A stretch of DNA of 48,067 nt from a virus (taxonomy: Duplodnaviria; Heunggongvirae; Uroviricota; Caudoviricetes): the IMG/VR virus record IMGVR_UViG_3300010163_000004, positions 136,935-185,001 of that record. One strand, 5' to 3'. Made by a program: the position numbers and the translations under genes. Positions 1 to 48,067 of the stretch are shown here, one piece after another (position 1 is the first letter of the stretch; each line of letters starts with the position of its first letter). The notes beneath the pieces are model-generated. The model did no database searches and was not told the origin of the DNA. It saw nothing but the letters and a program-made list of their open reading frames with translations.

Positions 1-1167
1 AATTACTATCTGTTTCCAGACGACTGGGCTTATAAAGAAGATGGTGAAATCCCATCTGTCTTAGACGGAACTGATGGAACAGTAAGAGTTAATACTCCTA
101 AATTTTATGGAAAATCTGGCAGCAACGGAAACAAAAGATGGGTTAGAACTTCTACTGTCAAAATTGATGATTCATGGGTAGAAATCCCTGAACTATTAAT
201 AGATGCATACAGAAGTACAGTTGACACCACAGTCTCTGCAACTCCAAAAGCTGTATCAGTAGTTAATACTACTACTGCATTTAGAGGTGGAGGAAATAGA
301 GCTAACTACGATGATTATCTAACTACAGAATTAGAAACTAAGGATATATTCAGAAGTGATTTAGGAAAGCCTAGAACTAATATTTCTAGAGCTACTATGA
401 GAACATATGCAACAAATGCTGGTTCGGAATTGCTATGCTATGAATATTACAAATGGATATTCTACTGGAATTATGTTATCGAATATGCTAATTTTAATTC
501 TTAGGCTGCATATAATGCAGAGTTAACTGCGGATGGGTATCATCAAGGGGGTTTGGGACCTGGAGTTACAGATTGGGCTAACGCAGCTACAAGTTGGTCA
601 GGGTATAATGCAACATATCCACTTACACCTTGTGGTTACTGCAATGAATTTGGTAACTTCACTGGAGTAAAAGATTTAGTTATTCCAGAATGTACAGCTC
701 AAGATGGCACAAATACAGTAGCAACTCATACATTTAAAGTACCTCGCTGGAGAGGATTCGATAATCCGTTTGGAGATATTTGGACTAACTTAGACGGAGT
801 AGTTATAGTAAGAGCAGCTGCTAATGAGATTAGCACTGTCTATACAACTACTAACGTATCGGAATTTACAGACGTAGTTGGAGAAAAAACCGTTGCAGGA
901 TACGAAGTAGCATCTGATGGTTATACTAAGGCATTTGATTTAGGTGAAACCGCTGAAATAATTCCGTCCGCTGTTGGAGGAAGTGCTACTACTTATATTT
1001 GCGATTACCATTACTGCAACGCAAGCAGCACAGCGCTTCGCACGCTGCGGGTGGGCGGCAACGCGGGGCATGGCGGCAATGCGGGTCTCGGCTGTTTCAG
1101 TTCTGACTGTGACGTCGGTATTGCCTATTCCTCTGTCGGGTTCAGGACTCTGAATAGAGTATCTTAA
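1..1167 (+). CDS. DGR target protein (5'-truncated by the window); tail-fibre/Mtd-like protein with C-terminal C-type-lectin-fold variable domain
   Basis: Frame 1 is open from base 1 except for one TAG (502-504, NFNS-Q-AAY) and ends at TAA 1165-1167. The C-terminus LRVGGNAGHGGNAGLGCFSSDCDVGIAYSSVGFR matches the CLec-fold pattern of DGR targets and contains the VR. Confidence 0.9.
1045..1143 (+). repeat. DGR variable repeat (VR)
   Basis: Ungapped 99-bp alignment to 1246-1344 with 24 mismatches, 21 of them at TR adenines. Confidence 0.95.
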
Positions 1168-1185
1168 GATATACAATATAAAAAT

Positions 1186-1204
1186 CGATTTAGATGATAA
1201 ATCG
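1186..1204 (+). other. Small hairpin downstream of VR (candidate DGR homing hairpin)
   Basis: CGATTTA-GATGA-TAAATCG: perfect 7-bp stem with a 5-nt loop, about 20 nt after the target stop codon. Confidence 0.5.
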
Positions 1205-1245
1205 TAGGATATTACTTCTAAAAACCGTTGATTGGCAAAAAAGTA

Positions 1246-1344
1246 CTGCTAGTAGGCAGCAACGCGAATAATGGCAGCAATGCAGGTCTCAGCTATTTCA
1301 ATTCTAACAATGACGTCAGCAATGCCAATTCCAATGTCGAGTTA
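1246..1344 (+). repeat. DGR template repeat (TR), non-coding
   Basis: AAT/AAC-rich copy of the VR (ctg cta gta ggc agc aac gcg aat aat ... aat gtc gag tta), located between the target and the RT. Confidence 0.95.
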
Positions 1345-1485: not shown

Positions 1486-2760
1486 TTGAAACGTGTAGGA
1501 TATTTGCACGAGAAAGTATACGCTGAAGATAACATCGAGCTAGCTGACAATAAAGCTAGAAGAAATAAGTCTATTAGATGTGAAATCAAGCAGCATGATA
1601 AGAATAGATTAAAAGAAAATAAGGAATTATCCAATAAGTTAAGAGATTTGATTTATCAAACCTCTGAATACAGTACCTTTATAATATATGAACCTAAAGA
1701 AAGATTAATCTTTAGACTTCCATACTATCCAGATAGAATAACTCACCATGCTATAATGAATATTATGGAGCCTATTTGGACTAGTATATTTATAGACCAA
1801 ACATATTCCTCTATACGAAATAGAGGTATTCATAAAGTAGAGTATGATTTGTTTAAGGTGTTATAGAAACATCCAGAAGAAACAAAGTATTGCTTGAAAA
1901 TGGATATAAAAAAATTCTATCCTTCTATAACTCATGACATTCTATACAAAATGTTGTAGAGAAAGATAAAGGATAAAAAACTATTAAAACTGTTAAAAGA
2001 AATAATCTATTCAGCGAAGGGAGTTCCTATTGGAAATTATCTATCACAATTCTTTGCAAATTTATATCTGACATATTTTGACCACTGGGTAAAAGAGGAG
2101 TTAAAATGTAAGTACTACTTTCGATATGCTGACGATATTGTGATTCTTGGTAATGACAAGAATTATTTGAGAAATGTATTAGTATCTATAAAACTATATT
2201 TGAAACAGGTTCTTAACCTAGAGTTGAAGCCTAATTATCAAATATTCCCTGTAGAAAGCAGAGGTATTGATTTCGTAGGCTATAAATTCTACCATACTTA
2301 TATTCTATTGAGAAAATCTATAAAAATGAGAATGTTTAGGCTTATAAATCTATATAAATAGAATAAGATTGATAAAGATGAATTGAATAGAAGAATGAGG
2401 TCTTATTTTGGATGGATGAAATTTTGTAACTCTAAGAACTTGCTGAGAAAGGTAGAGGAGTTAACTGGATTGAAATTCTCTAACTGGAATGGAAAAGAAG
2501 TTAACATATCTAAGTTTTATAATAAATATATTCACATTGTAGAGGTTGTTGATTATGACAATCATTTTCGAGTGCATTTCATGTATAACAATAAACCCTA
2601 CTATTTTAAAAGTAAGAATAGGAGATTGCACTATTCTTTGCTTAGATACAAATTTCCTATAAATTTTAAAATAACACCTTATGTTGGAGCCGAATAGAAT
2701 ACAAATGGACGTTTATCCTTAGACGATCCAAAAACTTGGGAATGGTACTTATTACTATAA
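1486..2760 (+). CDS. DGR reverse transcriptase with C-terminal extension (424 aa with TAG=Gln)
   Basis: TTG start, MKRVGYLHEK N-terminus, IYEPKERLI..LPYYPDRITHHA, LKMDIKKFYPSI, GVPIGNYLSQFFAN, YFRYADD (YADD at 2125-2136), GIDFVGY, SYFGW. In-frame TAG at 1864, 1957, 2359 and 2695; first TAA at 2758. Confidence 0.93.
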
Positions 2761-3276: not shown

Positions 3277-3286
3277 TTTGTAAAAA

Positions 3287-11573: not shown

Positions 11574-11575
11574 TC

Positions 11576-18813: not shown

Positions 18814-19269
18814 ATGACTTTAAATGACGTATTGACAAAACAAAATGCAATCACCAAAATTATTCTTAAAGATGGTGATAAGGAACTCTCGAAGGAGTTA
18901 AAAGTGAAGATTATGCGTATCAGAATGGCTTATAATAAAATCAAAAAGCAGTTTGATGATGATACGAAAGAATTTACAGACCAGATTATATCTGACGAAC
19001 TTAGAGAGTTGGCCAATAAGCCTGATAGAACTTCTGAAGAGGAAACAAGATTCAATGAGCTTAATGATAAAACTAATTCTGAGTACCAGGAATATCTTGT
19101 TCAAAAAGGTTTAGAAGAAGTTAAAGATACTCCAGAGGATATAATTACTATGGAAGAATATTCAGATATCCTAGATGTTAATTCCGGGAATGATATAGAA
19201 ATTAACGGAAATGCAATCAAAGCAGCAGATTTTATGGAGATTATATTTGACTTATTTGTTAAGGAATAA
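18814..19269 (+). CDS. Hypothetical acidic coiled-coil protein, 151 aa (possible fibre chaperone)
   Basis: Track ORF with ATG and TAA; contains no TAG. Confidence 0.8.
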   Translation: MTLNDVLTKQNAITKIILKDGDKELSKELKVKIMRIRMAYNKIKKQFDDDTKEFTDQIISDELRELANKPDRTSEEETRFNELNDKTNSEYQEYLVQKGLEEVKDTPEDIITMEEYSDILDVNSGNDIEINGNAIKAADFMEIIFDLFVKE

Positions 19270-19271
19270 TT

Positions 19272-19565: not shown

Positions 19566-19566
19566 T

Positions 19567-19643: not shown

Positions 19644-19648
19644 TAGAT

Positions 19649-22649: not shown

Positions 22650-22650
22650 T

Positions 22651-27387: not shown

Positions 27388-28809
27388 ATGCTTGTAGCAA
27401 GTTTTGTAACTAATCGCCCAACGATGGGTGACACTAGAACTTATGAAGATTTTAGTAAATTCCTTGGCGAACGGCCTCACCGTTTAGGCGTTGTATCTCG
27501 TCTTTATCCGGAACTTACTGCAACTTTCTTGACAGAAGCTCTAAGAAATATTTTCTACGGAGATACCAAGAAAGCTACTGGATTCCAGAATATTGATTCT
27601 ACTTATTTCGAATGGGAAGTAGAAACTAATTATATTAAGAGAATTCCCTTCGCAGCAGTGCCTGTTGAAGATGGAGCGGATGGCTCAGAAATTGAAATGA
27701 TTTTCCCAGAAAACTATTATCAATTACACGAAATTTTCAAAATTGAAAAAACTGGATAGCAATGTTTTGTTGTATCTCGTCCTACTAGAAAAGCAGACAA
27801 TATGTGGTCTGTAATGGTAAGACTTATTGATGATGACTACTCGTCAATCCTGGATAAGGATGGATGTCAAATTGGTGATACAACTCGTTTCATTGGTAAC
27901 GCTAAGCCAGAATTGCATGATACTGGTTTTGTTAAGTATCAATCTAACGTTGAAAAGATGAGAAACTATATGACAACTATTCGTGTTGACGATAGCTACT
28001 CTTCTAAATATGCATTAATGGAAGATACTTTCATTAAGGTTGGTAAAGGCGAAAATCAAGGATGCTTAACTGAAAAGATTTACAAACTTGAGCCTATGAA
28101 GAAGAACTTAATTGAAAACTTCTTATATGCTCGTGAAAATATGATTCTATTGGCTAAAGGAAACATCGGAGTAGACGGTAAAGCTACTATCTCTGATAGA
28201 GGTACTGGACGTCCAATTCCTATTGGTGACGGTATGATTCCTCAAATCGAAAGATTTGCTTCTAAGTATGCTGCTAATAGAGTAACTATTAACACATTCC
28301 ACACAATCATCTCTACTATGGTAGAAAAGGCTGAGAAACCTACTGGTAATCACTTTGTATTCATGGTAAACGAAAGAATGTGGGGAATTGTACAGAGAGT
28401 TCTTGGAGACTATCTATCTACTCGTAAGACTGACGGTGCTTACTTGTGGTCTAGAGGTGGAGAAGGAAAATACATCAAAGTAGGTGCTACATTTGATGCT
28501 TACGAATGGGGTGGAAATGTTGTATCATTTAAAGTTGATAGAACATTGAGTAGAGAGTTCTTAGAACCATATGCTCTATGTATTGACCTTACAACTGGTA
28601 AGACTTCTACTCAACCTCCTGTAGCTATGTATTCTCTGAAAGGAAAAGACTACATCTTTAACGAAGTACTTGGTGTAGGTGGTCGTTCAGGTGGTGACAG
28701 TGGTGTTGTTTCAACTCCTGTTGCTGGAGGTATGATGACTATCCATGGATATGCTGGTATTGCAGTATTTAATCCCTACAGAAGTTTTATATTACGTTGC
28801 AAGGAGTGA
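27388..28809 (+). CDS. Major capsid protein (crAss-like, HK97 fold), 473 aa
   Basis: Track ORFs 27388 and 27802 join through a single TAG (27757). Sequence style (GDTRTYEDF..LG.RPHRLG; EWEV.TN.IKRI; GATFDAYEWGGN..FKVDR) and gene context match Crassvirales MCPs. Confidence 0.85.
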
Positions 28810-28879
28810 TATAAAAAACCTTACAAGGGCTATCTAAAAATAACAAATATAGAAAGATAAATAAAAATAAAATAGATAC

Positions 28880-28912
28880 GGTGGGGAACGAGGTGCTTCC
28901 CCACCTAATTCT
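28880..28912 (+). terminator. Hairpin after MCP (terminator/attenuator)
   Basis: GGTGGGGAA-N8-TTCCCCACC, perfect 9-bp stem, with only a weak T tract (TAATTCTTT). Confidence 0.6.
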
Positions 28913-28926
28913 TTAAAATATGAATT

Positions 28927-29787
28927 ATGGCAAAAAAGGTTAATGAAGTACAAGATGGAGATTTAAAAAGTAACATCGTTGTATTGAGAAGCGTATTTGG
29001 TAAAGTCGGACAAAAATATTACATACAACCACAAAAGGATGCTCGTGGTAGATATGCAGATTGTGTAAAGAGAGTAAACTCCCAAGGAGATATTATTCTC
29101 ACCCCAGAAGAAATTGAAAATGAATCAAAAGGACTAGCTGCATATATTCCAGAGACTGAATTATTTGTAATAGAAGACGGTAAGACTTTCAATCTAGATG
29201 ATGTCTATGATAGAGCTGTTTGGGAGGCAATTAAAAATTGCGACTTAATCGCTCCTGACAGATTTGCGAAAAATGAGAAGGGTGATTATCTAATCGATGG
29301 AACAGTAGACCCAAGGTCAAAAAGACCTAGATACGGCACTGCTGAGCTTTATGTAGATAGACCTGGATTTGAAGCCCAACGTAGAGTTACTAGACGTAAA
29401 CTTATTGTAGAAGCTTCTAATTATATTATGAATGACGAACGCGGATATGAAGGAAGATTACTCGTAGCTAAAGTTTTAGGTAGAGATATGAAAAATCAGC
29501 CAAATGCTGATATTGAAGATTACCTATTATCTATAGCTGAGAAAACTCCAGAAAAGATTATCAACTGCTATACTGGTGGGGATATTCAACTTCGTATGTT
29601 ATTTATAGAAGCTCGTGAAAAAGGAGTTATCGTTAAAAAAGACGGACTCTTCGTTTATGGAGAAGATGGTAAAGTTGCATTAGGTGCTACTGATAATGCA
29701 GTAATTGAATGGATGAAATTATCTAGAAATAGTAAAACCCTAGCCTTAATCAGAAAAGACACATATCAAGACGTGTTTGAAGATTGA
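28927..29787 (+). CDS. Conserved hypothetical protein downstream of MCP, 286 aa
   Basis: Track ORF, complete in the standard code (no TAG). Confidence 0.82.
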   Translation: MAKKVNEVQDGDLKSNIVVLRSVFGKVGQKYYIQPQKDARGRYADCVKRVNSQGDIILTPEEIENESKGLAAYIPETELFVIEDGKTFNLDDVYDRAVWEAIKNCDLIAPDRFAKNEKGDYLIDGTVDPRSKRPRYGTAELYVDRPGFEAQRRVTRRKLIVEASNYIMNDERGYEGRLLVAKVLGRDMKNQPNADIEDYLLSIAEKTPEKIINCYTGGDIQLRMLFIEAREKGVIVKKDGLFVYGEDGKVALGATDNAVIEWMKLSRNSKTLALIRKDTYQDVFED

Positions 29788-29813
29788 TTATCAATAAATA
29801 AACTTAGCTAAAA

Positions 29814-30971
29814 ATGACAGCTAGATAGGTTTTTGAAGCTACACTAATAGAACTTAGTAAAATTCAAGCACCTTCACTTAAGCTTTATGAATTTAACTAT
29901 TTATTTAATAAAGCTATAAACTAGTATATTAATAAGGTATACAACGTGTACGATATTAACTAGCAAACTACTGATGATTTGAGAGTCTTGAAGTCTACGA
30001 CTTTCTTGACTCCTCACAAGGTAGAACTTGCAGGAAGAGCATCTGGAGCTGCAAAAGATAGTGCTATTTAGAACACAAAAGCAGTTACTGGTAACTAGGA
30101 TTCTCCAGAAGGAGGATACACTGGTTAGGCTTCATCTTATTTAAGTAAAGCCCATCGCTCGATTCAATCTCTGCATGGTGCTACGTATGAAGTGTATATG
30201 CCTATTGACTACTTACATATGTTGAACTGTGTTTGCATTTATTATGTTGCTAAACAAAAAGATTGCTGGGATGCAGGCTCATATATTGAAATCCCTGCAA
30301 CAAGATTAACTGCTGATTCTTGGAGTCAAATCATTACAGACATTTATAATAGACCTTCGCCTATGCGTCCGTACTATTATGTCCACAATCTTAATCAATA
30401 GTAGGTATTACCTACTGACCCTAGAACTTCCGTGAAGACAGGAACTGGATTAGAAGAAGTTGGTATTGATATGAATGGTATTTATCAGGTTACTTCAGCT
30501 TCTGGAGGAGAGTGGGAAGATAATAATATTGATGCAGGAACTGCTGGAGGGACTTCTCCTGAAAGTCAAAACTCTAACTTCCAAAGAACATTTAAACTTA
30601 ATGTAAATGGAAAAGATACTCAAGTATCTCTAGTTGAAAAACCCATTGCATTGAGAGCTGGAAATACTTCTAATGTTCGTTGTGAAATTAGATATGGTAA
30701 GGATGATAGTTTATTCCAATTAGTAGAAGTGCAGATTGATTATGTTAAGTGTCCTTAGTTTATTCGCTTAACTCAAGAGCAAATAGATTTAACAGAAGAC
30801 ACTTCTCAAATCATGGAGTTCCCAGATTATGTAAACCAAGAGATTATAAACGAGTTGGTACACTTAGTAATGGAACGTGTAAACGATCCAAGACTAGGTA
30901 ACAATATTTAGATGACTCAATCTATTGCTAGACCAACTGGGCAATAGCAACCAGCCCCTCAACAAGGCTAA
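29814..30971 (+). CDS. Putative head-tail adaptor/ring protein, 385 aa
   Basis: MTARQVFEATLIELSK...YDIN-Q-QTTDDLRVL resembles crAss-like ring proteins. The C-terminal GQQQPAPQQG has TAG between two CAA codons. Confidence 0.7.
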
Positions 30972-30988
30972 TTAAACTTTAATTAATT

Positions 30989-31993
30989 ATGGCAACAGGT
31001 TTAAATTTTCAAACTTAGACAATTATCAATTCGAATCTGGATCCAGATTCAAGTAAATTGAACGGAAAAGGTACTGATAATACCTATCTTTTCAAGAGTG
31101 GCAAAACAAACATCGACGGAGAAGAAGTTGATGCTCTAAAGATTAAAAGAGATTTTGTGTTCGTTAAGGGATGCGTAAAAGCTATTAGAAAAAGAGCTGG
31201 ATATGAGGCAGTGCCTTGTAAAGCTACTATTGATTTCGGTGATGCTACTCTTTTAGCTGCTTTAAAAGCAGGAGGAGCAAAAACATATTGTAGACTCGAT
31301 ATTTATTTGGGTGTTGAAGGAGCAGAACCTTACATTTATTCAACTCCCTGGGTTCAAAAAGGTATGCCATTCTGGATTGAATTTACCGTTAAAGAAGCCG
31401 ATGACGCTGCTACTATTGCCAAAAATGTAGCAGATATGCTTAAAAAGAATCACGTATTCTTATGTGATAAAGACCTAATTAATGTTTCTGTAACTGGTAG
31501 CAAACTTGTTCTTGAAGGAGCTACTGAATATCAGAGATTCCGCAAAATCGAAATTAGCACATTCGATGCTTATGATGATTATGCAGAAAAAGTTGCAGAG
31601 TTAGACCCAACGAAAACTTCTGCTACTGACATTAAGCTAGATGAAAGAGGAAAGAATAGCTTCGGTACTTATTCTCAAATCATTAAAGACTTGAGACTTC
31701 CGACTGCTGCAAACTACCAATGGACTCATATCCGTCAGGCAGAAACTCCTATCGTTGGAGCTATTTACAATCAATATATTGTAGAATACGAAGCTCCAGC
31801 TACTAATGATGGTCTACACGCTGTAGGACAGAGAATGACTTCGCATACTACTCACGTATTCTGGGTAAAAAATGATTCCGAGTTAATCACTGCTTGGGAA
31901 GCAGCATTAGCTACTATTGGAACAGTAGTAGATGTTGACACTGAATCCATATCTTCTATAAGTGAAGATGAAGAAGATGAATTAGGTGCTTAA
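30989..31993 (+). CDS. Virion protein, 334 aa (candidate auxiliary capsid/decoration protein)
   Basis: ATG at 30989, one TAG at codon 10, then track ORF 31058. Followed by a terminator like the MCP. The functional call is inferred only from size, position and low TAG use. Confidence 0.55.
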
Positions 31994-32043: not shown

Positions 32044-32469
32044 ATGGAACAGTCAATTTTAGAATGGGCCTTAGCAGTAATAGGCAGTGGTGGTATAGGC
32101 GCAGTTATTACTTATATTTGTACTTTTAAGAGCAGAAAGAAACAAGTAGAAGCTGAAGCCGAATCTTCAATGGTCGAGGTTGAGTAGAAAAAAACAGATC
32201 TCAAACAAGACTAGTATGATTATTTGTAGAAGACGTGTGATAAGTACATAAAGGATTACCATGAGCTTGAAGGCGATTTTAGAAAGTAGATATCGGAATT
32301 GAGAGAGCAAATGGACAAAATTATGTTAGAGAAATCCCAAGCAATATCTGCAAAATGTAATGAAATTGCCACTCTAAAATCTAAAGTCACTTATTTAAAA
32401 GGAATAAGATGTTATAACTTTACTTGCAAACATAGGATAATGACTAATCCTGATAAAACAGAAGAATAA
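32044..32469 (+). CDS. Single-TM coiled-coil protein, 141 aa (holin/lysis-associated candidate)
   Basis: N-terminal hydrophobic ILEWALAVIGSGGIGAVITYI, then a coiled coil and C-terminal RCYNFTCKHR; 4 TAG. Confidence 0.7.
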
Positions 32470-33167
32470 TGTATATAGAGAAACTTGCATCCCAAATTCG
32501 TAATGATGTTGTATCTGGACTAAGAGGTTATCATTAGAATTTATCTATGAATATGGACTAGCTATAGGATGAAATAGTAGCCTGTAGATTATCCATATTA
32601 CATTAGTATTTTCTCAGAGGAATATTTCCTATCAAAGACCTGTTAATAGCGATTAACTGCATTGACGTAGACTGTGAGTCTCTTGAGAGATGTAAATGTG
32701 GAGTGAGAAGTGCGGATGATACTGTAACAGCTCATTTCGAAATACCACAAGTTATTTCATAGTACGGAAAGCAAGCTATTGAGTATATAGGTTCTACTGA
32801 TAGGCAAAATAAGTTTACGATAGTAACATCGTTATCTGAATTTAATAACAGAAAGTATAGAAAAAGAAGCTAGAACAAACCCTACGTTTGGATTGATTTC
32901 GCACCAAATGCAAACGGAATGTTAGATTGTTTTCTATTTAATGCACCATTCCTGTAGCAGGTTTCCGTAGTTGCAGTATTCAAAGACCCAAGATAGCTAA
33001 AGTAGTACAGTTGCTGTAATACTGACGAACTTAATGGGCCTGATGTAAATACTAGCTTTATTGATTAGCTAGTTAAGGAAAAACTAACTAAGGAAAAATT
33101 ATACTATTATAGATAGGTTGCAGCTTAGCCTCTGCCTAATGACTAGTAGTATGTAACAGGAGGATGA
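32469..33167 (+). CDS. Putative tail ring/tubular protein, 232 aa
   Basis: ATG overlaps the upstream TAA; open with 14 TAG; ends TGA. Not in the ORF track. Confidence 0.7.
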
Positions 33168-33168
33168 T

Positions 33169-33870
33169 ATGAGTAGACTTAATAATTTTCATTACGCTAT
33201 AAGTTTAGCTTAGATGCTATACGATATTGAGGGAGATAATGATGATTTAGAGGAAATCGGTTTAGTGGCATACAATTTTATTGGAAATAAAAACACTAGA
33301 CTGTATAGAGCACTATTAGATATAAATTGTTAGGATGGGTCAGTCGAATTACCTTGTAATGTAGACATTATAGAGGCTGTAACCTATTGTGGTCCAGAGG
33401 ATTGGGGCTACACTAGTAATACGAAAGAGTTTGGAGACATATAGTCTTTGTACACTGAGAATTACATTGAAAGTAGAAAAGCTTTCCTAGATCCCTTTTA
33501 TGTTAGCGGTAAGTTCGTTAAATATAAAAGAGTAGGAGATAAACTTTATGTTAATAAAGGTGCAGGAAAAGTAAATATTCTATATCATGGAATACTACTT
33601 GACGAGGAAGGTCTTCCCGAAATAAACGATAAAGAAGCTATCGCAATAGCTGAATATATTGCCTATGTATAGAAATACAAGGAAGCAATACGTACTAACA
33701 ATTAGAATGTGTTGAAAATGGCTTAGGACTTGAAGCGCTAGTGGCTACAGCATTGCTTAGCGGCTAGAGTTCCAGAATATGTATCTCAAGAAGAGATGGA
33801 TAAAATACTTAATGTATAGGCTTCTTGGGGACGTAAGTTTCATAACAGGAGCTATAAACCAACTATGTAA
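33169..33870 (+). CDS. Putative tail ring/tubular protein, 233 aa
   Basis: Includes track ORF 33448. ELPCNVDIIEAV and NILYHGILLDEEGLPEIND..AIA.YIAY resemble crAss tail tubular proteins; ends TAA. Confidence 0.7.
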
Positions 33871-33877
33871 AATATAC

Positions 33878-33905
33878 AGGGAGGCAATTTGTCTCCCTAT
33901 TTTTG
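33878..33905 (+). terminator. Intrinsic terminator
   Basis: AGGGAGGC-aattt-GTCTCCCT followed by ATTTTTG. Confidence 0.7.
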
Positions 33906-33908
33906 TTT

Positions 33909-34367
33909 ATGATTATGAGTAATAAGAATTATGCAATGGGTCATGCTTTTTCCTTGCATGACATTTTTATGAATTTCCCAGTAGAGAAACTGAAAATGAC
34001 TTCAGACTAGTGTAAAGAAACATACTCTGATGGAAATAAAAGAGATTTGGCGGCATCTATATTTGCCAAAAGTGTTCAGATGGTAGTAGATGATATTATA
34101 GATAACAATGTCCACTTTAAATTACCTGGAATGGCTAGGACATAGGCATATATGTATATGAAAAGAACAGAAGGTAAAAAATTTAAGAAGGCATTTAAGA
34201 ATGGAAAATGGAATGATATAGACTTTGTAATGTCTAACTTTAGCGGATATTAGCTTACTCTAGAGATGTAGAGTGAAAAGAGGCTTCCAAGAGAGAAACC
34301 TATATACTTATCAGCAAAAGATAAGTAGAGAATCGTAGATAATACTAACAGAGGTAAATAGTATTAA
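33909..34367 (+). CDS. Putative divergent HU/IHF-like protein, about 152 aa
   Basis: Open with TAG read-through, ends TAA. SIFAKSVQMVVDDIIDNNVHFKLPG and the position before the stabilisation genes fit the crAss IHF-like genes. Confidence 0.5.
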
Positions 34368-34372
34368 TTGTT

Positions 34373-34993
34373 ATGGTACTAAAAACTATATAGGATTACT
34401 ACGACCAAATTTGTGCAGAATATCCAAATATTCCTAAGTCGGATATTAAAAGAATTTTGCAATACGGATGGAAATCGTTATACTTACATAATAGTTATGG
34501 AGGAGATGCTCTAATTAATAGAAATGGATTTTGGTTTTATTGTGGATAGTTAATGAATGATTCTCTAAAGTATTTTGAGTACTATAAAAATAAAATGAGA
34601 ATTAAATTACGAATAATGTATAAACGCAAGCACATCCCTTGGGATGGATACTATTACTTTGCATTAACTTAGAATTAGTATAACGAATATTTGAGTTAGA
34701 AAAATAAAAGAGGACGACCAAAGAAAAGATTTACCTTTTCTAAGATCATCCTCTACAAAATATATGATGAGTGTAATATATCAGAAAGTAACCGAGTAGC
34801 AATATTCAGATTACCTATGCCAGTTGATTTCGGAATTAGTTTATATAAGAAAGAATTAACTACAGATAAAGCAGAACTAATCTTAGTTAGAGAACCTTTA
34901 AAATTTTAGGATATATTATTAACTAATTATAATTATCAATTTATTTCAGATAATTTAAGAAAATATAACAAAAACAAGAGAAACGATGACTAA
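34373..34993 (+). CDS. Basic protein with HU/IHF-like N-terminus, 206 aa
   Basis: IQDYYDQICAEYPNIPKSDIKRILQYGW...GGDALINRNGFWF; Lys/Arg-rich; ends TAA overlapping the next gene. Confidence 0.55.
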
Positions 34994-37900
34994 TACAATT
35001 ATGACTGCGAAAAATACATTCGCAGAAGGATTAGTAATGGATTTCGCTCCAGATAATACATAGGCTACAACTCTTACATCTGCACTTAATGCTACCTTGT
35101 TAACATTTAATGGGAACGAGATGTCTCTTTAGAATGATATGGGTAATGGAAGAGTGGAGACAGCATATCTTCCGGAGGGGTATATTCCAGTGGGAACTTG
35201 TGAATTTGGGGATATTATCTACATAGTATCTTATAATCCCATAATTAACAAATCCTAGATAGGATGTTTCCCCAGTCCAGAAAGAAACATTTCTTCTGAT
35301 GAAATTGGAGGAATGGACTAGAGCCTATCTTGGAAGGACTTTCAATAGTCTACAGATGGAGTGAATCCAAATGGAAAGTTAAAATCTACCTCTGTTAAAA
35401 AGGTACTATATGGAAATAAAAACATGAATCCAGGAGATAAATATATAATATACTCAGAGGATTTACCAAGAAATAGCCAGTACTTATCTGATTATGGAAG
35501 TAAATCTCATCAGCATAATAGCTTTCCAAAATTAATTAAGATACATGTAGTAAGTATTGAAGACTCCGGAAAAATAGTATATCTTGATTCTACAACTAAA
35601 TGGTATAAGAATAATGATTATTATTTAAGTTCTGATTCAAGAACAAACACAGAAGGCGAAGAGGATATAGATACACATAGGGCTAGAATGAACTCAGCTT
35701 ATTCTATATTTTCTTCAAAAGTGTCTGGAAACTTAGCTCTACTAGTAGAGTTAGAAAAAATAACAGGATTTAGCTGTAGTTGGATTCCATATATCGAAAG
35801 TACTACTGGGGGAAGTACCAAGAACACTACGTATAGAATTTACTGGAGTTTTAACTGGACTACTAACGATAATAATATAAATCCTAAAGGAATAATATTA
35901 ACAAAATCAGAATGGTCTGGAGTAGAAGCATAGCATAAGGGTCAGTATCAATTGTGGAGGAAGAATAGCAAGGGAGATATTATCTTAGGTAAGGAAAACC
36001 CAGAAGACACCTAGGATGGTTGGGTATTAGAATAGCCATCTATTCCAACTATTTATGAGAAAGAAGTAACTAGAAAATATAAACCAGAGGAAGTTTCAAT
36101 GACTTTTGAGAGCTTCATGAGGGAATATGAGTACAATAAGTATTTGGAAACAACGTTAACCTCTATTACTGAAAGTAATGAAGAAAAAGTATCTACTCCT
36201 TATAAGTTAAATATCGTTAGAAACGAGGGCCTTCCTCAAGAAGGCCAATATTTAGTTAACTGTACTCATATTGCTGACGGAGAATATTATACTACTAACC
36301 TTAAGGGGGAATTAAATAAAATTAATGCGATTTAGATCAATGATGATTTAGTAAATAACTATTTTCACTATCCTATCGTAAAATATTTTGCTAACTTTAC
36401 AATTCCTACTAAGCAAGTCTTTGATTCAATTGAAAAGATTCCAAACATAAGTAATCTTATATATCATTACAATATAGCTCCAGCTATGCCTTATGGTATA
36501 TTAGAAGAATTTACACAAGAAGGGTATATAGATTTTAGTAAAATAGGTACTGATAATATAAAAGTAACCTCTTGGAAATATTACAATTATGAGAATACTT
36601 CAACATTGACTTGGGGTATGGATGCTTATGTGGAGCCAGGAAAGGGTATATCAGAAGTAGTATTTGAATTTTATGATAACAATGGATTTGCTGCTGCATA
36701 TCATAATAAAGGAAAATTATCTTATAGCGGAACTTTTACTGAATATATAACATTAAATGAAGCAGGTTCTAATTATAAATTAAATAATGTTCCAGCAGAT
36801 ACATCTAAAGGTTAGTTACCTCATAAAGGATTGGAGGCCACTAAAGAAGATATGAAAGCTAACCCTAATATCACATATCTAGATGAAGCGGGAAAAGTAG
36901 TTAGCCTAAATAAGAATGGAGAGGTAATTGTTAGTGGAGATACATCAGGAACACCTTATACAGGGAAAATATATCAAGATGACTCTGGAACTTTATATTC
37001 TAATTACTTATACTTAGTTAAAATAACTATAAAATATTCTGTAAAGGGGGCATTAGACGAGTATATTGATAATCCGTCGGATTACAGGACTGAGTACAGA
37101 TGGTACTGGACCAATTCTATGTTTAATGAATATTACTATTCAGTGTCTGATTTTAAAGAGTTATAGTTTAATTTGAATCTTGATTTTAACGCTCTATATA
37201 AGCAAAAATCTAATACTATATTCAGTTAGAATGTTAATTATGCAGTTCCAAGTAATGAGGTTACAGAGTTAAACAAAAATGAACACACTTAGTTAAAGGC
37301 TAATGTAACTTATGTAAATTAGAACGGATAGGCTGATTCAAATGGGAATATTGAATGTAAGTTATAGTCCGGATTAAGAAATGACTATAATATGTTTAAT
37401 CTTGATAGTGATACATTAAATAATATTGAAACTGCCGTATTTCTAGGAAAATCCTATATAGAATCGCCAGATTAGCCCAAAACAGTAAGTTCAGAAGATT
37501 TGGCTTACACATTCCAGGGTATTTATCCTACTAATGAAGAAAATCTTAATGAAGATAACTATACTGCTAAAGTAAATCTTTCTAAGATTGGGCCTACCTT
37601 AAGTTAGTTATTAGGTTTTGAGTAGGAGGGCACTGGAGAAGAAATAAATGCTGATTCTGAGTCATATAAGGAATATAAAAATGCATTTTCTTTAAGGTTT
37701 CCTACAAAATATGAAGTTTAGGCTTAGGACAAATATGAATACTTGAATTATAGAGGTGAGGCAACTGAGATTAGTTCTGCTAAGTATATGTCATTTACTA
37801 ATGTTGACTACAAGTATGGTGAAAATTCTATAGATCTTACTTTCACTGGAATTCTATACAATAAGTACTATGAATTAAAAAACTATACTACTGCCAATGT

Positions 37901-39290
37901 TACTTTAGTAAGACCCCTATTATATAATAATGAAGACTTAGATACATATAGTATGTCTTTTAGTAATGGGCATTTTTACTTTGATAGATTAGGAGGCTTC
38001 TCTATTGGAGATGATGGTGATCATAGTACTAGAACTAGAATAAGATATTTTAGAGGTTCTGCAGATGCTATGGATCATTATACTAGGTCTTTCGAATAGA
38101 TAGGTGGTGCAAATTTTGGTGACGGTGCTCCCCCATATCTTAATTCTGAGGTATAGCATACTGATTACGGACAATTAAATGAAGTTTTTTCTGGAATCAC
38201 ACCGTTTATGTTAATGAGAGAAAGTGATTATGGTAAGCGCTATAAAATAAATAATGGATTTGATGATTCTCATAATTCCTTAGTAAGCAAATCAAACTTA
38301 GAACAATATTTCCAATTTGAATGTGATATTGATGGAGGTATTTATAAAGATTTAAGAAGTCTTAAAAGAAATAATTCTTTTGTATTCTTAGCTTTAAAAG
38401 ATAAAGAAAATTAGCTTCATTTTTTAAATACTTTTATTCCAGTAGACTTTAGCTCATACGGACCCTATATAACTCAAAATATTAAATATAAAGATACTGG
38501 CTTAGATACTACATTATACAGACCCAAAACGATAGGGGATGCTGTTGCTTCTGTATTAATGAATTTGTACTATACCACTGGAGAGACAAGCTAGGAGAAG
38601 GTATTCCGCACTTGTAATTTTGTGCAGCTGGAAAATCATAGTTATATTTTTACTAAAGATATTATTTTTAGATTTAGAGTTAAAGAACACTTGGATACGG
38701 GCAAAGAGGTAGACCAAAATGAAATGATTTTATTACATGGGGTAAAATATCCAGTATATATAAATGATGTTATTTAGAAATCAGGAATGGGAAACGAAGT
38801 CAAGAATGACCCGAATGTATCTTTAGACCTAAAAGGAATAGAAAAAAATTGTCCCCTGTAGTTCAGATTTAATTATATAGTTCCTCTGCCAGAAGTTGAA
38901 ACTGATGCTAAATATGTTGTAAAATGTTCTGATGGTACTCCTTAGTTTGTAAATAGTTCTTTTGCAACAAATGTTTTATATTACTAGAGTACTGAAGATA
39001 AACGCATATTCAATTAGTTAGGAAACGGAACTTTAACCTATAGAGGGTTTAAAAACTTCGAATACAGCGCTGATTCCTAGTATATAGGAGAACTACACGA
39101 CAAAAAGATATTTAACTATACTATAGGAAATGCATTTTTATTATACAATAATCAATTAATGTGTAAAAATACTACTGGGTCTATTGCAGAATCAAAGGGC
39201 TTTTCCATAAATGGTCTGGAAGAGATGTGGTCTGGAATATACCCAATTCATAGAGATGAAGTTTTAGTGTCCATGGGAAAATTAGGTTAA
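34986..39290 (+). CDS. Tail stabilisation/muzzle-like protein, part 1, 1434 aa
   Basis: NTFAEGLVMDFAP..LTSALNATL.TFNGNEMSL-Q-NDMGN..LPEGYIPVG.CEFGDIIYIVSYNP..-Q-IGCFPSP. Six track ORFs share this frame; ends TAA. Confidence 0.78.
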
Positions 39291-39293
39291 TAT

Positions 39294-42200
39294 ATGGAAT
39301 GGGTTAAATTACTAAATAACATAAGACTAGAAGCTTAGACTAAAGTTATACCAACTAAAGGAAATCTTGTATATGAATACAATCCCTTTAGAAATTATAG
39401 AATTACATAGAATATGTATGAATATAAGGGATAGCTTTATTCATTAGGAGATTTATGGAAGATATTTGGAGTTAGCATCAACTGCACTGCCTATCGTTAC
39501 AAGAAGAATAATGTATATATTTATAAGATAGGAAATTCTCCAAGTTATATTTGGAAACCTGGTAAAGATGATCCTGTAGAAACTAGTTCTGATGCTAATT
39601 AGTTTGGAAAATGGATAGAAGAAGCATATTCTGAAAATCATAATGCAGATAAACGAAATTTAGAGCAGGCATTAAAAGATACTACAGACTAGCTTACTTG
39701 GTATAATGTACCAGATATAGAAACAGACCCATATCTTAGAGAATCAGGAGAATTAGTAGATTTTACTACTGATGAATTAAGTTTTTCTTTGGATCATCCA
39801 GTACATATTATCCCTCAATATAGTTATGATGGTTCTGTAAACCTTATTATTAATGATGGCATCAATATTCCTAGATTAATAAATAGTAGATTCAGTGCTA
39901 CAGGAAAAAATACTTATGAAGTAGTAGACAGAAAAGGGAATAATGATACTAATATATATGATTAGGGAGATTAGTTTGATATTGATACCTCTCTGTATAA
40001 AAGAGTAGTTAAAATTCCTAAAATAGACTTTAAGGGAGTTTCTGCAGGAGGTAATTTAAAAGTTGGAAACTATCATTTCTATTTTAAATTATCTGATGCA
40101 GATGGAAATGAAACTGATTTTGTTGGAGAATCTGGTTTAGTTAGTGTATTTATAGGGTTTAATGACTATTTTTCAGTTACTACTGGATAGAAAAATGAAA
40201 ATAGCTTTAAATAGGTTTAGTTTTAGGTATCAAATGTTGATAGTTCCTATGATTATGTAACTGTTTATTATTCTAGAAGTACAGCAGAGGCTAACGAAAA
40301 CTCAATAACTGAATACATTAAAATAGATAAAAAATATTAGGTTAATAATGCTTCTGTTGCTAATGTTATAATAACTGGTTTCGAAAATGAGGTTACTATA
40401 GACGCTTCTGCCATTAATTTAAATTATAATATAGTAGATAGTGTTACTACTTCTGCAGTATGTTAGAATATGCTATTTTTAGCCAATGTACATAAACAAG
40501 ACGTCCCTTATTTTGAATTATAGGATCTATCTCTAAGATTCCTTCCTTATCTTAAGCAAGAGGAATATGCTGTTGATATAGATTAGAGTTACTCTATAAC
40601 TACTGCAAATAGAGGGTATCTAGATCCCAAATTTATATATGATAAAACTGGATACTGGGGGAATGAAATATATCGTTTCGGAATTGTTTATATTCTAAAT
40701 AACGGGGAGTTATCTTCTGTTTTTAATATTCGAGGTAATTATAATATTAAAGAATTTTCTTCAGAAAACAAGGATAGTTATATAGATGGTTAGTATGCCA
40801 ATATTCCAGTATGGGATGAAAATAATGAGCGTCGTCATATAACTTATAATGAGGAAACCTTTACTCTATTAGAAGATGAAAGAACCTCTTAGTATGAGAA
40901 TGTAAAGGGGGTAGTGTCTTTTAATCCAGATAGAGATACTAATACTATATATTCTGTTGATATAAGAGTAGATGATTAGACTATTTAGGAATTAAAGAAA
41001 CATGTAAAAGGATATTTCTTTGTTCGTTAGACTAGAATACCTACTATACTTGCGCAAGGCATTACTGTTGGTATAGATAAAGAATCTAGAACTCCTACAA
41101 TACCAACAGCTGATGGATTTTTAACTGATTTGTCGGATTCTCTAAGTAAAACTCATGTTACTACTGAAGATATTAATGATGTTAATTTTATCTCAGAAGG
41201 GTTTTTAAGCAGATATTCTTTTAAGTTTAAAAAGAAATCATCTGGTTTATGGGGAAGCCTAGGTACTGCATTATTAGTTGGAGTTGGTATAGCAGCTGTA
41301 GCTGCAGCTTGTGTTTTCGCTGGACCAGCTATCGCTGCGGCAGCAGGTACTATTGCTGGAGCAGCTGCTGCAGGAGGTACAGCTACTACTGCGGCAATTG
41401 CAACCGCTGCCGTATCCGCTGGAGCTGCTGCAGTATCTTCTAGTGCTGTTATTATAGGGGCCGCCGCAGCGTCAGTAGTTGTAGGTACAGCTTTGGCAGC
41501 AGGAATACAAGAAGTTCGATATGGAGTAGGACGTAGTTTCGCTAAAAAGAAATTAGATGGGCGCAATACAATAGCTCCTTCTGGATATAAAATAGTAGAA
41601 ACGGACGAATCTCGTAAACTTGATCAGGATTTTCTTAAAAGATTCATTCCTAAGGATGCTGATAGTAATATAGTTGCTGGCATAATATGTCCAGATTATG
41701 AAATAAACCAACCTTATTATAATTAGATATTTACAGGAAATAATCATTTAATAGAATTAGCTAACTCTCAGAATATTAACTGCCTAAATGGTCATTCTAC
41801 AAATTATTTCACTAATAATGAGCGGCATTTTTATGTTCCCTCTTATTATGATCGAAATATAAGAACAGCTCACACGTTTAAAATAATTCCTGTTCAAGAT
41901 AATATGAAATGTGTAGGAATTGATGATATGATGTTCAGAAGTAGAGCTGGAGAAGCTGAGGAAGTTTGGAGATATGAATGTATCTCCGAGGATTTTAAGT
42001 CAGATACAACTAAATCTGCTGGAGAAGAGGATTCAGAAACTTCGAGCAATAAGAAGATAAATACAGACATTATCAGAGGTAGTTTTGGAGCCTATTTAGC
42101 GTTTAACGATACTAACAACAGCTTTCAACCTGCTGAAACTGTTAATATCTACATACCTGAATACTCTACTAGCAATATGCAAAATTATTTCTATTTGCGT

Positions 42201-45200
42201 ATGATAGATAGTTCCTCATTCTTTGCTATTACTGATCGTTACAGTATTCAGGATACTGACAGTTATTTAATAAAGAAACTAAGTAATATAGTAGGATAGG
42301 AAGACAGAACATGTGGTTACCAATATAATGCTTACAGAGGGGACTGTTATATTTGTCAATTTACTCATAGAGTAAATAGAAACTTCAATGATCCATCTGC
42401 CCCATATAACGACGAAATAGTGGATAATGCTACTTGGAAAGAAAACTATGATCCAGAAAACAGTGAGAAGTATGAACAAATAAATTTGGGAGACGTTAAT
42501 GCTGTTCAATTAGGGATGTGGGTTACCTTTAAAGTTAGGTCTTCTAACAATTTAAATATTAGAACTTTAGATGGTTCCTATGTAGATGAAACGGCTATGT
42601 GTGGACATCCGAGAGGGTACTATCCATACCTTCCTATGAGTACTGAGGGAACGTATAAACACCCAGAATCATAGGTATATAACAAGGGTTTTACTAAATC
42701 TTTAAGTGAAAGATGGAACTTTGAACTTCCTGATGTTCCCCATATAAAAAACTGGTTTGGGACTCGTATCATGTATTCTGATATTCACGTTAATGATGCC
42801 TATAAGAACGGATTTAGAGTTTTCCAAGGAACTCATTATAGAGATTATACTCGCGAATACGGGGAAATAGTAAAGTTAATTTCTCTTGAGTCTAATCTTT
42901 TATGTGTATTTGAACATGGTATAGCATTGATACCTGTCAATGAAAGAGCAGTCGCAGGTGAGGGAACAGGCGGAAATGTCTATATAAACACATCTAACGT
43001 GCTTCCAGAGAACCCAAAAATTATCTCTGATATGTTTGGTAGTCAGTGGCCCGAAAGTGTCCTCAAAGTCCCAGGAAAGACTGGAGATTCTGCATAGTAT
43101 GTCTATGGAGTTGATACAGTTGCTAAGAAGATTTGGCGTACTGATGGAAACACTCTTACTTGTATTTCAGACTTTAGAGTTCAAGAATTTCTAAATCAAA
43201 GTATTACTTTGGGCGAAAGAGAACTTACTCCTAAAATAGGTATTAGAAATGTAAAGACAGTATATAACGCCTTCAAGCGAGACGTATTATTTACTTTCTA
43301 TGACAATACTTATGGCTTTGAAGAAAAGGTTTGGAATCTATGCTGGAATGAGTTATTATAGAAGTTTATAACATTCTATAGTTGGGTTCCTAGCTATATG
43401 GAAAATATAAATAATATTCCATTCTCATTCGATAGAAATACTTCTAAGTGGATTGCTAAACTAGGAACAAGTCATACTGAAAGTTCTTTTGCTGACGGTA
43501 TTACACTATCTAATGTAATTATAGAAAACTCAGAGAATGAATAGGGAGAAGTAGTAACTAACTTTAAAGTTCCAGTTTCTTATGTGAATAAGAAAGGTGA
43601 ATGGGTGACTCAAAACTATACTGTAGCGAATGATGGAATTAGTAGAAAAAAATACATTGGAATATTATCCTTAAGTAATAGAATACTTCCAGATGCTTAG
43701 CTTCACTATTAGATTTCCTATTCCTTGTAGAGAGATTAGTATGGAAACTATAAGAAGTTTGACATAGTCCCCCTAAATTGTGGAGAAACTAATGGAGGTA
43801 TATATCTTCCAGATGATGCTATGTTCGCAGGAGCTTTCATGCCTCTATATTGTCTAAAATTCAAGGAAGGAAAAGATGAATATAGTCCGGTCTATTATAA
43901 AGATGGACAGGAGATGACTGAAGTATCCGATGGAGCTAGCGATACATTCTACACTTATCAAGCTCTATATACCGCAAAATCCCTATTATCTGAATTATAT
44001 TATAGGAATAGTGCAGGACATTAGTATGCAGACTACGAAGTTAATAAAGTTAAGGTAGGAGACTCTATCGAAGGGAATACATTAGAAATAACTGATGTGT
44101 TAGATTATCCTACATTCAAAGACATTACTGGAAAGCGTCCTACTCTTCCTAGAGAAGAAATGATAAATCCTGATAAAATAGTAACCTTACTTAATATTAA
44201 GGCTACAATATCTATTGTTGATAGTGATAATTAGTCTAAACTAAGTGATTCCTATTACAATATGAAAGCAGGATTTTAGTCAGGAACATCTCTAGTAGAT
44301 GCTGGATATTATGAATCTGTTGTAGGAATAGCTCCTAGATGGAACTTATAGTTCTTATCTACAGATTTTTGGAAGCACGGCTAGGCTGGACTGATTGACA
44401 TAGCAGATGATATATATCCTACTTATTGGTATGGAAGACAGCATCCATTCGAATTTGAATGTGTAGTAGTGAACGATCCTTCTATACATAAGATATTTAC
44501 TAATCTTGAAATTGTTGCTAATAAGGCAAAACCTGAATCTTTCCACTATGAAATAATTGGAGAGACATACGACTTTGCAAAAGATAAGGTAAATATGTAT
44601 TTTAGACAGGAAGCTATGAAAGCATTGTGGCAATACAATGGAGCTGATATTTCTTATGATAGGAACTTCTTAAAAGTTCAACCTAGATAGTAGCCAAAGT
44701 CTGCTGACTTCCCGCATAAGTACTATACTAGACAAGATACTATCAATGAAATAGAAGATTATTATATTCATGTAACTTATCCAGACTCACATGATTATCG
44801 TCATTTATCTGGAGCGGAAGTAGTTTACTATCCAAATAGACAAGAATATCGAATCTGGAATCATGCTATGGCTGTAGATATAGACGATTTGAGTTAGGAT
44901 GATTCAAGGTCAATTATCTCTGCTAATTGTTAGTATTTAGAGGACAGATGGAAAGTTACAATTAATCCTATTTTAGTATGCTATAAGAATGAGTATCAAA
45001 AGAAATTCTCTGGTTCCTTAATATAGCCTCAGAACTCTACTTGGGCAAGAGCCGAGAATAGTTCACAAAGCTTACCAACTCTTCCTATTTATAATTCTCC
45101 TATACCGGATCAGGTTTTATCAGCTGGTGGTATAGATTTCCCAGGAAATGACCCAGTACATCCCGAGTGGGGAGAAGATAACGCTCTTTACAATTTATAT

Positions 45201-45419
45201 GATTTATCTGGGTACAATTCCGAAGGAGGTTGGAAACCGTTGGATTTAACTAATTGGTTAGACGATGTTAATATTTACAGATATAACTTTGGGGAAGCAT
45301 AGAATAGAAAAGAGTTAGATGTTAAGGATAAATTCTTAAAGATAAGAATTAGATATTCTGGAGAAGAATTAGCTGTTATAGATTTCTTAAATACTGTATA
45401 TAGAATTAGCTATAGTTAA
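39294..45419 (+). CDS. Tail stabilisation/muzzle-like protein, part 2, 2041 aa
   Basis: SYDGSVNLIINDG.NIPRLINSRF, GGNLKVGNYHFYFK, YRFGIVY, YTREYGEIVKL, WNE..F.TFYSW. Six track ORFs share this frame; ends TAA. Confidence 0.8.
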
Positions 45420-45423
45420 AAAT

Positions 45424-47313
45424 ATGTTTAATAGAAATATAAATAAAGTCAGAAGAATAGCGAAAGCCTATTATGGGCTTTCCATTCCTTCTGGAAATCC
45501 ATATATGACTACGAATGGACTAGCCATCCCTGGTAATGCTATTACTTAGTAGAATTTGCTAGGAACTGATTATAGCGCTGATTTCAGAAACAGAGCTGAA
45601 TAGATAATGGCTCCTACTAATAGTCTTATAGATTTTAATGCTAGAATGGGAGACTTATTTAGCTTAAAGCTAAAGAATGATAGAGATTCCGCTAAAGCTA
45701 TTACATAGATAAAGAGTATGTCTGGAGCACCTTAGAAATCATAGGGAACTTTCTAGAAACTAGGAGGGTGGAATACAGTAGGACAAGCCTCAGACTTCCT
45801 AAGCGGACTAATTGGAGGTGATAAAGATGGATACCTTGGTAAATATGGTTCATTATAGCAAGCAGGAGACTAGGCGTTCGACTAGGCTTCAAATGTAGTA
45901 ATGGGAATAAATCCTCTGGTCGGAGGGATAATGAAGGCAGGAGGTTTAGTTAGTGATGTATTAACTAAATGGGGTGGAATGGGCACAGATTCCATGACTA
46001 AAACCGATGCTGTACTAGGTAGTAAGTTATTATCTCTTACTCCAGTTGGTATGGTTAATGGTTTCTTTGGTAAGAAAACTAGGGATTTTTCTGCTAATAG
46101 AGATACTATAGAATAGGTAGGAGGTTCTTACGGTGGAACTGTTAGGAATATAGCATCAGCAGAAGAAAAAGCTGGAAAGAAATATGGATTATTTAGTGGA
46201 GGAGCAAGAAGGTCAGCTAACAGATTCATAAATAGAACAGAGTCTCAATAGGCGACTATGACTAATATAGCTAATGAGGCTTCCGATTTATCTTCTATAG
46301 CTACTAATATGTCAGATTTAAATCATATTTAGTACGGCTTCAACCTAAATGGCGGATATGATTAGAGATATATGAGAGCTGCTAGACTTGGAACTAAATT
46401 ACAGAGAATTAAAAAACTTAATATATAGTCTCATAAATTAGGAGGTTAGATATAGGGAGCAATAGACTTGAATGAATGGCAGCCTGTTATAACTGAAGCT
46501 GTAGAGTAGTTTGAGTCTGGAGGAGAATTAGAATGGACTCCTATTATAACCCTGTAGGAAGGAGGAAAAACTGAAAAGGTAGATGGAATAACAGGAGCAG
46601 CCCCAAAGATTACTTTCTGGTCTTGGTATAATACTGTTCCAAAAGATAGGCTGTCGAATAATTATGACCTTAAGAAAGCTTTTGAAGTACTGCCATTTGA
46701 GGAGTTAGAGGCGTGGAGAAAATCTTCTAACGAAGATTTAAGAATTGGAAAAAATCACTTACGAAGCATTTATTAGCTTCCCAATGGAGATTATGAATTT
46801 TTAAAGCTAGGAAATGAATAGAGTAATCCAGAGGTTCATTTCGAAACTGATACTTATCATTCTGGAGAAAATGGATTAAAAGATTCTCATGACTTAGTCT
46901 TTGAGAAGGATAGATACTTCTATAGAAAGAAGCCTAAACAATTTAAAAATGGTGGTAAACCAGAACCTATAGATGCTCCAGAAATAGAAGAAACTAATTA
47001 GAAAAATATAATTCCAGAAGGTGCTCTTCATGCTCGCAAGCATAACATGGAAAATGCTGATAACTTGACTAAGAAAGGTATCCCAGTTATAGATAATGAA
47101 GGGGAGCAATAGGCAGAAATAGAAAAAAATGAAATAATATTTACACTAGAAGTTACTAAAAAGCTGGAGGAGTTATACTCTAAATATACAGACTATGAAT
47201 ATTCTTAGAAAGAAAAGGATGAAGTAGCAATAGAAGCTGGAAAACTGTTAGTAAAAGAAATATTATTTAACACAGATGATAGAACTTCTTTAATATAGAC
47301 AGTACAAGTATGA
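45424..47313 (+). CDS. Putative cargo/ejection protein with Gly-rich hydrophobic segments and repeated xxxGG motifs, 629 aa
   Basis: Includes track ORF 45901. Motifs HKLGGQ, FESGGE, LQEGGK, FKNGGK; EGALHARKH..KGIPVIDNEGEQQAEIE; ends TGA overlapping the next ATG. Confidence 0.72.
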
Positions 47314-48067
47314 TGGCTTTAAATGATTTGTTAGTATCTTACAAGCGTATTGAAGCTCCTTCTAGAATCATCCCAGAATTTAAATTCCCTGAATCTTATC
47401 AACTAGTTACTCCTAACATTCCATAGAGTGAGCCTGATTAGGAAAATGTATAGACTCCTAAATATTATACTTCCACTATTTAGAGACCTAGGTTTAGCCA
47501 AACCAAAAGATGGAGTAGTCCATATAAAAACAGAAATACTTGGGTAACCGACTTAGCGGCTGCTTATAGAAAAGCTGGAGTAACTAATGATAATGCAATA
47601 AAGATGTTAATTGCCCAAGATGCTCAAGAAAGCGGTTGGGGACGTTCAGCACAAGGTAAATTCAACTTTGGGAACTTAACCACTGGAGCTAAATGGAAAG
47701 GTGATTATGTTAGAGGAAACGACCATGACGCTAAAGGTAATCCCATCAAATAGAAATTCCGCTCTTATAATTCTATGGATGAGTATGCAGCTGATAAACT
47801 GTAGTTCTTGAAACACTTATATGATTTTGATGAAAATGATGATATTAATACGTTTACTGCCAAACTTACTGGTAAGAACAAAGGCAAGAGGAGGTATGCA
47901 GAAGCTACTGATTATGCTGATAGAGTGGCAGCGGTATTTAGAAGTTTCAAGAATGGAGGAGTTATCAAGGCATAGGCAGGAACTATAGTAGCTGATAATA
48001 CTAGAGTAGTTAAACCTACTATATAGGAGAAGATTTAGAGAATTTATCCTACTAGATAGTAGCCTTA
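47310..48067 (+). CDS. Virion-associated GH73 (glucosaminidase/FlgJ-like) peptidoglycan hydrolase cargo protein, 3'-truncated by the window
   Basis: LIAQDAQESGWGRSAQGKFNFGNL, KFRSYNSMDEY, YAEATDYADRV, then FKNGGVIKAQAGT. Absent from the ORF track because of TAG codons. Confidence 0.8.

Follow-up and report, generated by a model that had tools for sequence, protein, structure and literature searches.

TAG-to-glutamine recoding of late genes is already known as a trait of crAss-like gut phages. The crAss-like family with the largest genomes, spanning 145-192 kb, was described by Yutin 2021 (PMC7886860), with TAG-to-Gln recoding of late genes reported for the large-genome Zeta group. Stop-codon recoding was put forward as a means of regulating late and lysis genes by Borges 2021 (bioRxiv 10.1101/2021.08.26.457843), and Peters 2022 (PMC9523058) reports metaproteomic confirmation of genetic code 15 in crAss-like phages. 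Here we analyse a stretch of 48,067 nucleotides (hereafter the window) corresponding to positions 136935-185001 (+ strand), i.e. the final 48 kb, of the 185,001-bp phage record IMGVR_UViG_3300010163_000004, whose completeness is rated at 99% in IMG/VR. The window is the late module, coding for virion and lysis proteins, of a large crAss-like gut phage, and we conclude, with a probability of roughly 95%, that UAG in this module is a glutamine codon (code 15), that only UAA and UGA terminate, and that decoding is most likely carried out by a phage-encoded tRNA with the anticodon CUA. A preliminary description of the sequence had already claimed window-wide reassignment of TAG to glutamine and had pointed to precedents among crAss-like gut phages; the former is supported by our decoding tests and by the glutamines of homologues, and the latter agrees with the three studies cited.

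The phage resembles the Zeta group (PMC7886860) in its 185-kb genome, in its crAss capsid, muzzle and ring proteins, in the many phage tRNAs including a suppressor, in recoding mostly confined to late genes, in having close branches that use the standard code, and in the intein-type domains found in the terminase of a relative; we see no substantial difference, the likeness being one of traits. It also fits the model of Borges 2021 in that the replication genes follow the standard code and the structural and lysis genes the alternative one, in the phage-encoded suppressor tRNA, in a gene-specific TAG bias that is high in tail genes, in the low GC content (34%), and in the rarity of TAG as a stop in the standard-code genes. 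It departs from that model in two respects: no 'code-change module' of release-factor or aminoacyl-tRNA synthetase (aaRS) genes was found here, and in the lysis cassette the TAG bias is seen in the endolysin gene only, because the three small genes just upstream of it carry zero, zero and one TAG. The code and the kind of phage are the same as in Peters 2022, with the difference that the peptides of that study come from other genomes and the code of the present phage is read from DNA alone.

Open frames across the late block

Under translation table 11, 29% of the window is taken up by open reading frames (ORFs) with a length of 100 aa or more, as opposed to 93% when TAG is read through, so that the comparison of tables 15 and 11 proposed in the preliminary description yields a three-fold gain. 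The alternative codes with TGA as Trp or TAA as Gln reached 31% and 48%, respectively, by the same measure and were rejected on this ground. For a first-order Markov null (20 shuffled sequences) the mean coverage was 7.7% and the maximum 12.5%, the longest ORF having 240 aa; the longest ORF of the real window with TAG read through has 2169 aa. The gene model built with TAG as Gln comprises 37 genes, all on the + strand, with a coding fraction of 97.4% and a median gap of 2.5 nt. This late-gene block (1-48067) is open only with TAG as a sense codon and contains 317 in-frame TAGs in 15,627 codons (about 2.0%). Its 36 complete genes end in TAA (23) or TGA (13) and never in TAG, and not a single TAA or TGA occurs in the coding frame, as opposed to 2,391 in the other two frames. 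The earlier picture of about 40 abutting genes ending only in TAA or TGA is thus borne out with respect to packing and stops, the number of genes being 37. Other details of that picture hold as well: its dozens of ORFs terminated by TAG amount to 47 among the 57 that table 11 gives on the + strand at a minimum length of 60 aa, a CAA-TAG-CAA string does lie at 30942-30950, and tandem TAG-TAG sites exist at 12297, 16134, 23600 and 33144, to which we add five more (24624, 30399, 44688, 45547 and 48057).

The splitting of the block into 47 TAG-terminated ORFs under table 11 could be taken to mean that the TAGs are not decoded at all, the genes being decayed pseudogenes, products of an assembly or sequencing artefact, or genuinely short genes ending in TAG. 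This explanation, to which we assign a negligible probability, is already refuted. Frames of up to the length given above contain neither TAA nor TGA, and the read-through products are recognisable as capsid, muzzle, ring, portal, terminase, endolysin and reverse transcriptase proteins. The same pattern recurs, moreover, in independent assemblies, in all 39 full-length muzzle orthologues and in 58 of 77 portal orthologues.

The amino acid at TAG

The identity of the inserted residue was assessed from codons read directly in the DNA of homologues, and database proteins possibly derived from code-15 gene calls were avoided on account of circularity. For the same reason the database homologues of the terminase (all close relatives, with 73-99% identity, among the matches listed) were excluded from decoding, as glutamine at their TAG positions may be circular. 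A suitable reference is the sister phage G001, a genome of 183,433 bp with direct terminal repeats, which is 85% coding under table 11 and has 18 TAG stops. Window proteins were aligned with those of this standard-code sister with TAG masked as X, and the 101 TAGs that could be aligned were paired with Gln 30 times (CAA 21, CAG 9), with Lys 11 times and with Glu 11 times. For comparison, CAA and CAG codons of the window fall on Gln of the sister in 30% and 43% of cases, respectively, and the top partner residue was correct for all 50 testable sense codons.

The portal gene, which lies outside the window, gives a concordant result. Nineteen of the 77 orthologues found in viral contigs lack in-frame TAG, and 18 of these TAG-free orthologues are distinct (57-65% identity). 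Together the 18 contribute 504 cells to the 28 TAG columns; CAA or CAG fills 262 of these cells, and 15 columns have a glutamine majority. A Codetta-like log-odds calculation on 107 portal representatives (24-53% identity), an approach suggested in the preliminary description, favours Gln by +22 to +30 bits, with Glu next at -2.7 to +2.2, and the accompanying control decoded 34-35 of 36-37 sense codons correctly. In the muzzle gene, all 39 full-length orthologues have between 36 and 49 in-frame TAGs each and neither TAA nor TGA. Gln is again the residue most enriched at the TAG columns (7.6-fold), followed by Glu and Lys, a profile similar to that of CAA and CAG, with all 57 sense codons decoded correctly in the control.

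Individual sites add further detail. The window encodes a Peptidase M15 endolysin of 134 aa (23555-23959, + strand) with four TAGs. One of them, at 23876-23878 (+), occupies an invariant glutamine position of the family: Gln is found in all 33 distinct TAG-free homologues (CAG 17, CAA 16), just as had been expected for the motif FD-Q-LI. The same expectation for G-Q-AAD holds only in part, since the TAG at 23786 is in frame but Gln is merely the plurality residue there (14 of 33, besides Met in eight, Cys in five and Glu in five). The one related structure obtained from the Protein Data Bank (1lbu) has His at this position, and the G-x-AAD site is not diagnostic. At codons 16-17, the tandem TAGs (23600 and 23603) occupy columns that are variable and non-Gln. 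Within a virion protein of 1434 aa (34986-39290, +), an L-TAG-NDMGN string, correctly noticed earlier, is present at 35127-35147, and its TAG (35130-35132, +) aligns to CAA within the conserved LQNDMGNG motif of G001. Gln codons of G001 are likewise aligned to the single TAG of the capsid gene (27757), to TAG 502 of a tail protein gene, and to TAGs 1864 and 1957 of a reverse transcriptase gene.

Could TAG be a sense codon for some other residue, namely Glu, Lys, Tyr, Trp, Leu, Ser or pyrrolysine? Glu and Lys are indeed the second and third commonest partners of TAG, Tyr came second in a four-sequence muzzle comparison, and several TAGs of the portal and endolysin genes stand in non-Gln columns. 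However, the secondary Glu/Lys profile resembles that of genuine CAA and CAG codons, the commonest partner codon is CAA, which is two mutations away from TAG, and the nearest relatives of the phage suppressor tRNA (see below) are tRNA-Gln genes. Glutamine wins all decoding tests by a wide margin with the sense-codon controls correct, so we regard a different residue as very improbable. Homologues with another residue at TAG had been named beforehand as evidence that would speak against recoding to Gln; what the homologues show instead is Gln as the top residue overall.

About half of the TAGs occupy positions where relatives have other residues, and the glutamine content of the late genes, 2.1% without TAG, rises to 4.7% when TAG is counted, compared with 3.6% in the + strand genes of G001. 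Because of this higher content and the TAGs at non-Gln positions, we suggest that recoding let new glutamine codons accumulate.

A probable suppressor tRNA between two coding blocks

No tRNA gene lies within the 48-kb window, in line with the earlier statement that it contains no suppressor tRNA, but the complete genome has 22 tRNA genes. Twenty-one of them are on the - strand at 88-115 kb, and the remaining one, with the anticodon CTA, is located on the + strand at genome positions 118647-118719, 18 kb upstream of the window, where the early block (- strand) and the late block (+ strand) diverge. ARAGORN labels this tRNA 'Pyl' because of the CTA anticodon alone. Compared with the other tRNAs of the phage, it is most similar to tRNA-Gln(TTG) (75% identity, the next best tRNA reaching 67%), with which it has the U1-A72 pair, the D arm and most of the T arm in common. 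In G001, too, the tRNA that it matches best is the tRNA-Gln of that phage (78%). It looks like a diverged duplicate of the phage tRNA-Gln(UUG), judging by these similarities.

The distribution of this tRNA among relatives follows that of recoding. The recoded relatives G006-G008 possess an identical copy, and a more distant recoded relative (G010) has one at 85% identity. No tRNA-CTA is among the 25 tRNAs of G001, which was scanned in full, and no close match to it was found in three further standard-code sisters. As a separate observation on the tRNAs of G001, ARAGORN reports one with a four-base anticodon (gcgt) within the tRNA array, on the - strand at 94788-94862.

A well-understood parallel is provided by supE (glnV) of Escherichia coli, a tRNA-Gln that has the anticodon CUA, inserts glutamine at UAG, starts with a U1-A72 pair and keeps G10. 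The phage tRNA has the same combination of a tRNA-Gln body, CUA anticodon, U1-A72 and G10; unlike supE, it is a diverged paralogue and not a point mutant, and its targets are about 2% of all codons in the late genes instead of rare nonsense alleles.

The use of TAG follows the layout of the genome. The - strand block (ca 35-118 kb) is open under table 11, and the + strand block (ca 124-185 kb plus 1-35 kb) is open only with TAG read through. The 116 genes of the early block end in TAA (69), TGA (42) or, in five cases, TAG, and in four of these five read-through would add just 1-6 residues. The early and replication genes share with 21 of the 22 tRNA genes a block that is open under the standard code and in which TAG is almost unused, and these protein-coding genes would therefore be translatable under the host code on arrival of the phage. 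The amber suppressor tRNA, presumably charged with glutamine by the host glutaminyl-tRNA synthetase (GlnRS) in the manner of supE, as its kinship with tRNA-Gln would suggest, would then accumulate, decode UAG in late mRNAs and outcompete the host release factor 1 (RF1), so that late proteins may be completed at full length. The same scheme is set out in Yutin 2021 and Borges 2021.

Several observations weigh against the reading of UAG as a glutamine codon served by the phage tRNA. The residue specified in this very phage is deduced from sequence. Six stop-free Crassvirales portals from GenBank (22% identity, three of them from cultured phages) have Gln in 25 of 161 cells, a count equal to that of Lys and close to that of Glu; this is 2.5-fold over a Gln background of 6.1%, although the signal is weak at such a distance. 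The suppressor differs from the phage tRNA-Gln at position 3:70 and at base 36. Recoding is also not strictly bound to the strand, since two - strand ORFs at genome positions 119739-122053 contain four and 15 TAGs. These ORFs, of 135 aa (phrog_15610 protease family, four TAGs) and 552 aa (no family match, 15 TAGs), have the suppressor tRNA on one side and, on the other, the first genes of the + strand with heavy recoding. Finally, TAGs are not clustered near gene starts but evenly spread along genes (Kolmogorov-Smirnov p = 0.23), which leaves the idea of a 5' 'gate' formed by such codons unsupported.

Two more points of this kind lend some support to a rival explanation, in which read-through is supplied by the host, through an amber suppressor of its own or through a lacking or weak RF1, and the phage tRNA-CTA is dispensable. 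The divergent recoded relative G009, the genome of which was scanned only in part, gave just a 22-base partial match to the tRNA-CTA. Moreover, no RF2, anti-RF1 or GlnRS/GluRS gene was detected in the genome of the phage, so that a genome-wide search for tRNA-CTA and for release-factor or aaRS genes, as envisaged in the preliminary description, returned the tRNA only. Yutin 2021 (PMC7886860), furthermore, documents crAss-like genomes that are recoded but in which no suppressor tRNA could be detected. Against this stand the complete conservation of the tRNA-CTA in the close recoded relatives checked, its presence in the distant one, and our failure to find it in the four standard-code sisters checked. 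The avoidance of TAG stops by the early genes (5 of 116) also fits a cell that terminates at UAG when the phage arrives. We therefore consider host-supplied read-through improbable, if somewhat less so than a residue other than glutamine, and retain the phage tRNA-CUA as the most likely decoder of late UAG codons.

Uneven use of TAG and other genes of the window

Although the late block is recoded as a whole, its genes use TAG to different degrees. Six genes of the window have no TAG and four more have only one, including the gene for the crassvirus major capsid protein (473 aa, PF23898; 27388-28809, +). In the capsid gene and two neighbours, presumably head genes (region 27388-31993), TAG accounts for two of 28 Gln codons, compared with a mean of 50% for the window (binomial p = 3e-6). 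A similar depletion is seen in 42 distinct relatives, where 12% of the Gln codons of the capsid gene are TAG, as opposed to 36% in the flanking genes. At the other extreme, TAG represents 67-80% of Gln codons in the tail genes at 32469-34993, the region of the crAss tail ring protein 1 (PF24228; 33169-33870, +), which itself has eight TAGs versus two CAA and CAG codons together. A neutral explanation would be protein conservation. However, both these tail genes and the TAG-free gene at 28927 show 54-55% identity to G001, and slow evolution alone is insufficient to account for the TAG-poor capsid genes, because equally conserved tail genes are TAG-rich. Since the use of TAG is graded and unexplained by protein conservation, it is possible, though we advance this tentatively and consider it rather less probable than its opposite, that the UAG share of Gln codons is a translational dial that sets how much of a given virion protein is made, or when, beyond an on/off late switch; such a dial would depend on the suppressor tRNA competing with host RF1.

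Clusters of small TAG-free genes occur inside the recoded block at 18814-20087 (three genes) and 22437-23052 (two genes, one of them encoding a DUF7841 protein at 22651-23052). They may have been acquired recently, or their expression may precede the code switch.

The remaining gene content is that of a crassvirus virion module. The Crassvirales signature proteins, i.e. major capsid, muzzle, ring, portal and terminase large subunit, are all present, and the matches to PF23898, PF25731 and PF24228 all exceed their cut-offs. The muzzle protein (2041 aa, PF25731) is encoded at 39294-45419 (+) with 41 TAGs. Terminase (788 aa, genome positions 126292-128658) and portal (723 aa) are encoded outside the window and match annotated Crassvirales genes at 21-27% identity; the closest terminase match in GenBank reaches only 44%. 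The terminase of a relative (P0003) has 1131 aa and contains Hom_end/LAGLIDADG domains of the intein type, and the 788-aa copy of the present phage is without the insertion. The last gene, truncated at its 3' end by the end of the record (47310-48065, +; 11 TAGs), encodes a glucosaminidase-domain protein (PF01832, with matches to phrog endolysin families), which is likely a second peptidoglycan hydrolase beside the M15 endolysin, as its domain suggests, and is probably virion-associated.

The opposite end of the window harbours a diversity-generating retroelement (DGR). The tail protein gene mentioned above (phrog_5302; 1-1167, +, one TAG), which is 5'-truncated by the window, has at its 3' end a variable repeat of 98 nt (1045-1142), the template repeat (1246-1343) follows 201 nt downstream, and the DGR-type reverse transcriptase (RVT_1, phrog_1423; four TAGs) is encoded at 1486-2760 (+). 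The two repeats differ at 23 positions, 20 of which are template adenines, out of 30 adenines in the template.

Under table 11 every gene call is thus wrong in the window, as it is over about 95 kb of the genome as a whole, and, as most of the + strand ORFs so called are TAG-ended fragments, the other findings in the window depend on reading TAG as Gln. The phage represents a well-resolved further example of late-gene amber recoding, and one that comes with a natural control. Together with its standard-code sisters at 57-65% portal identity, it forms a pair that could be used to study the spread of a code change through a genome.

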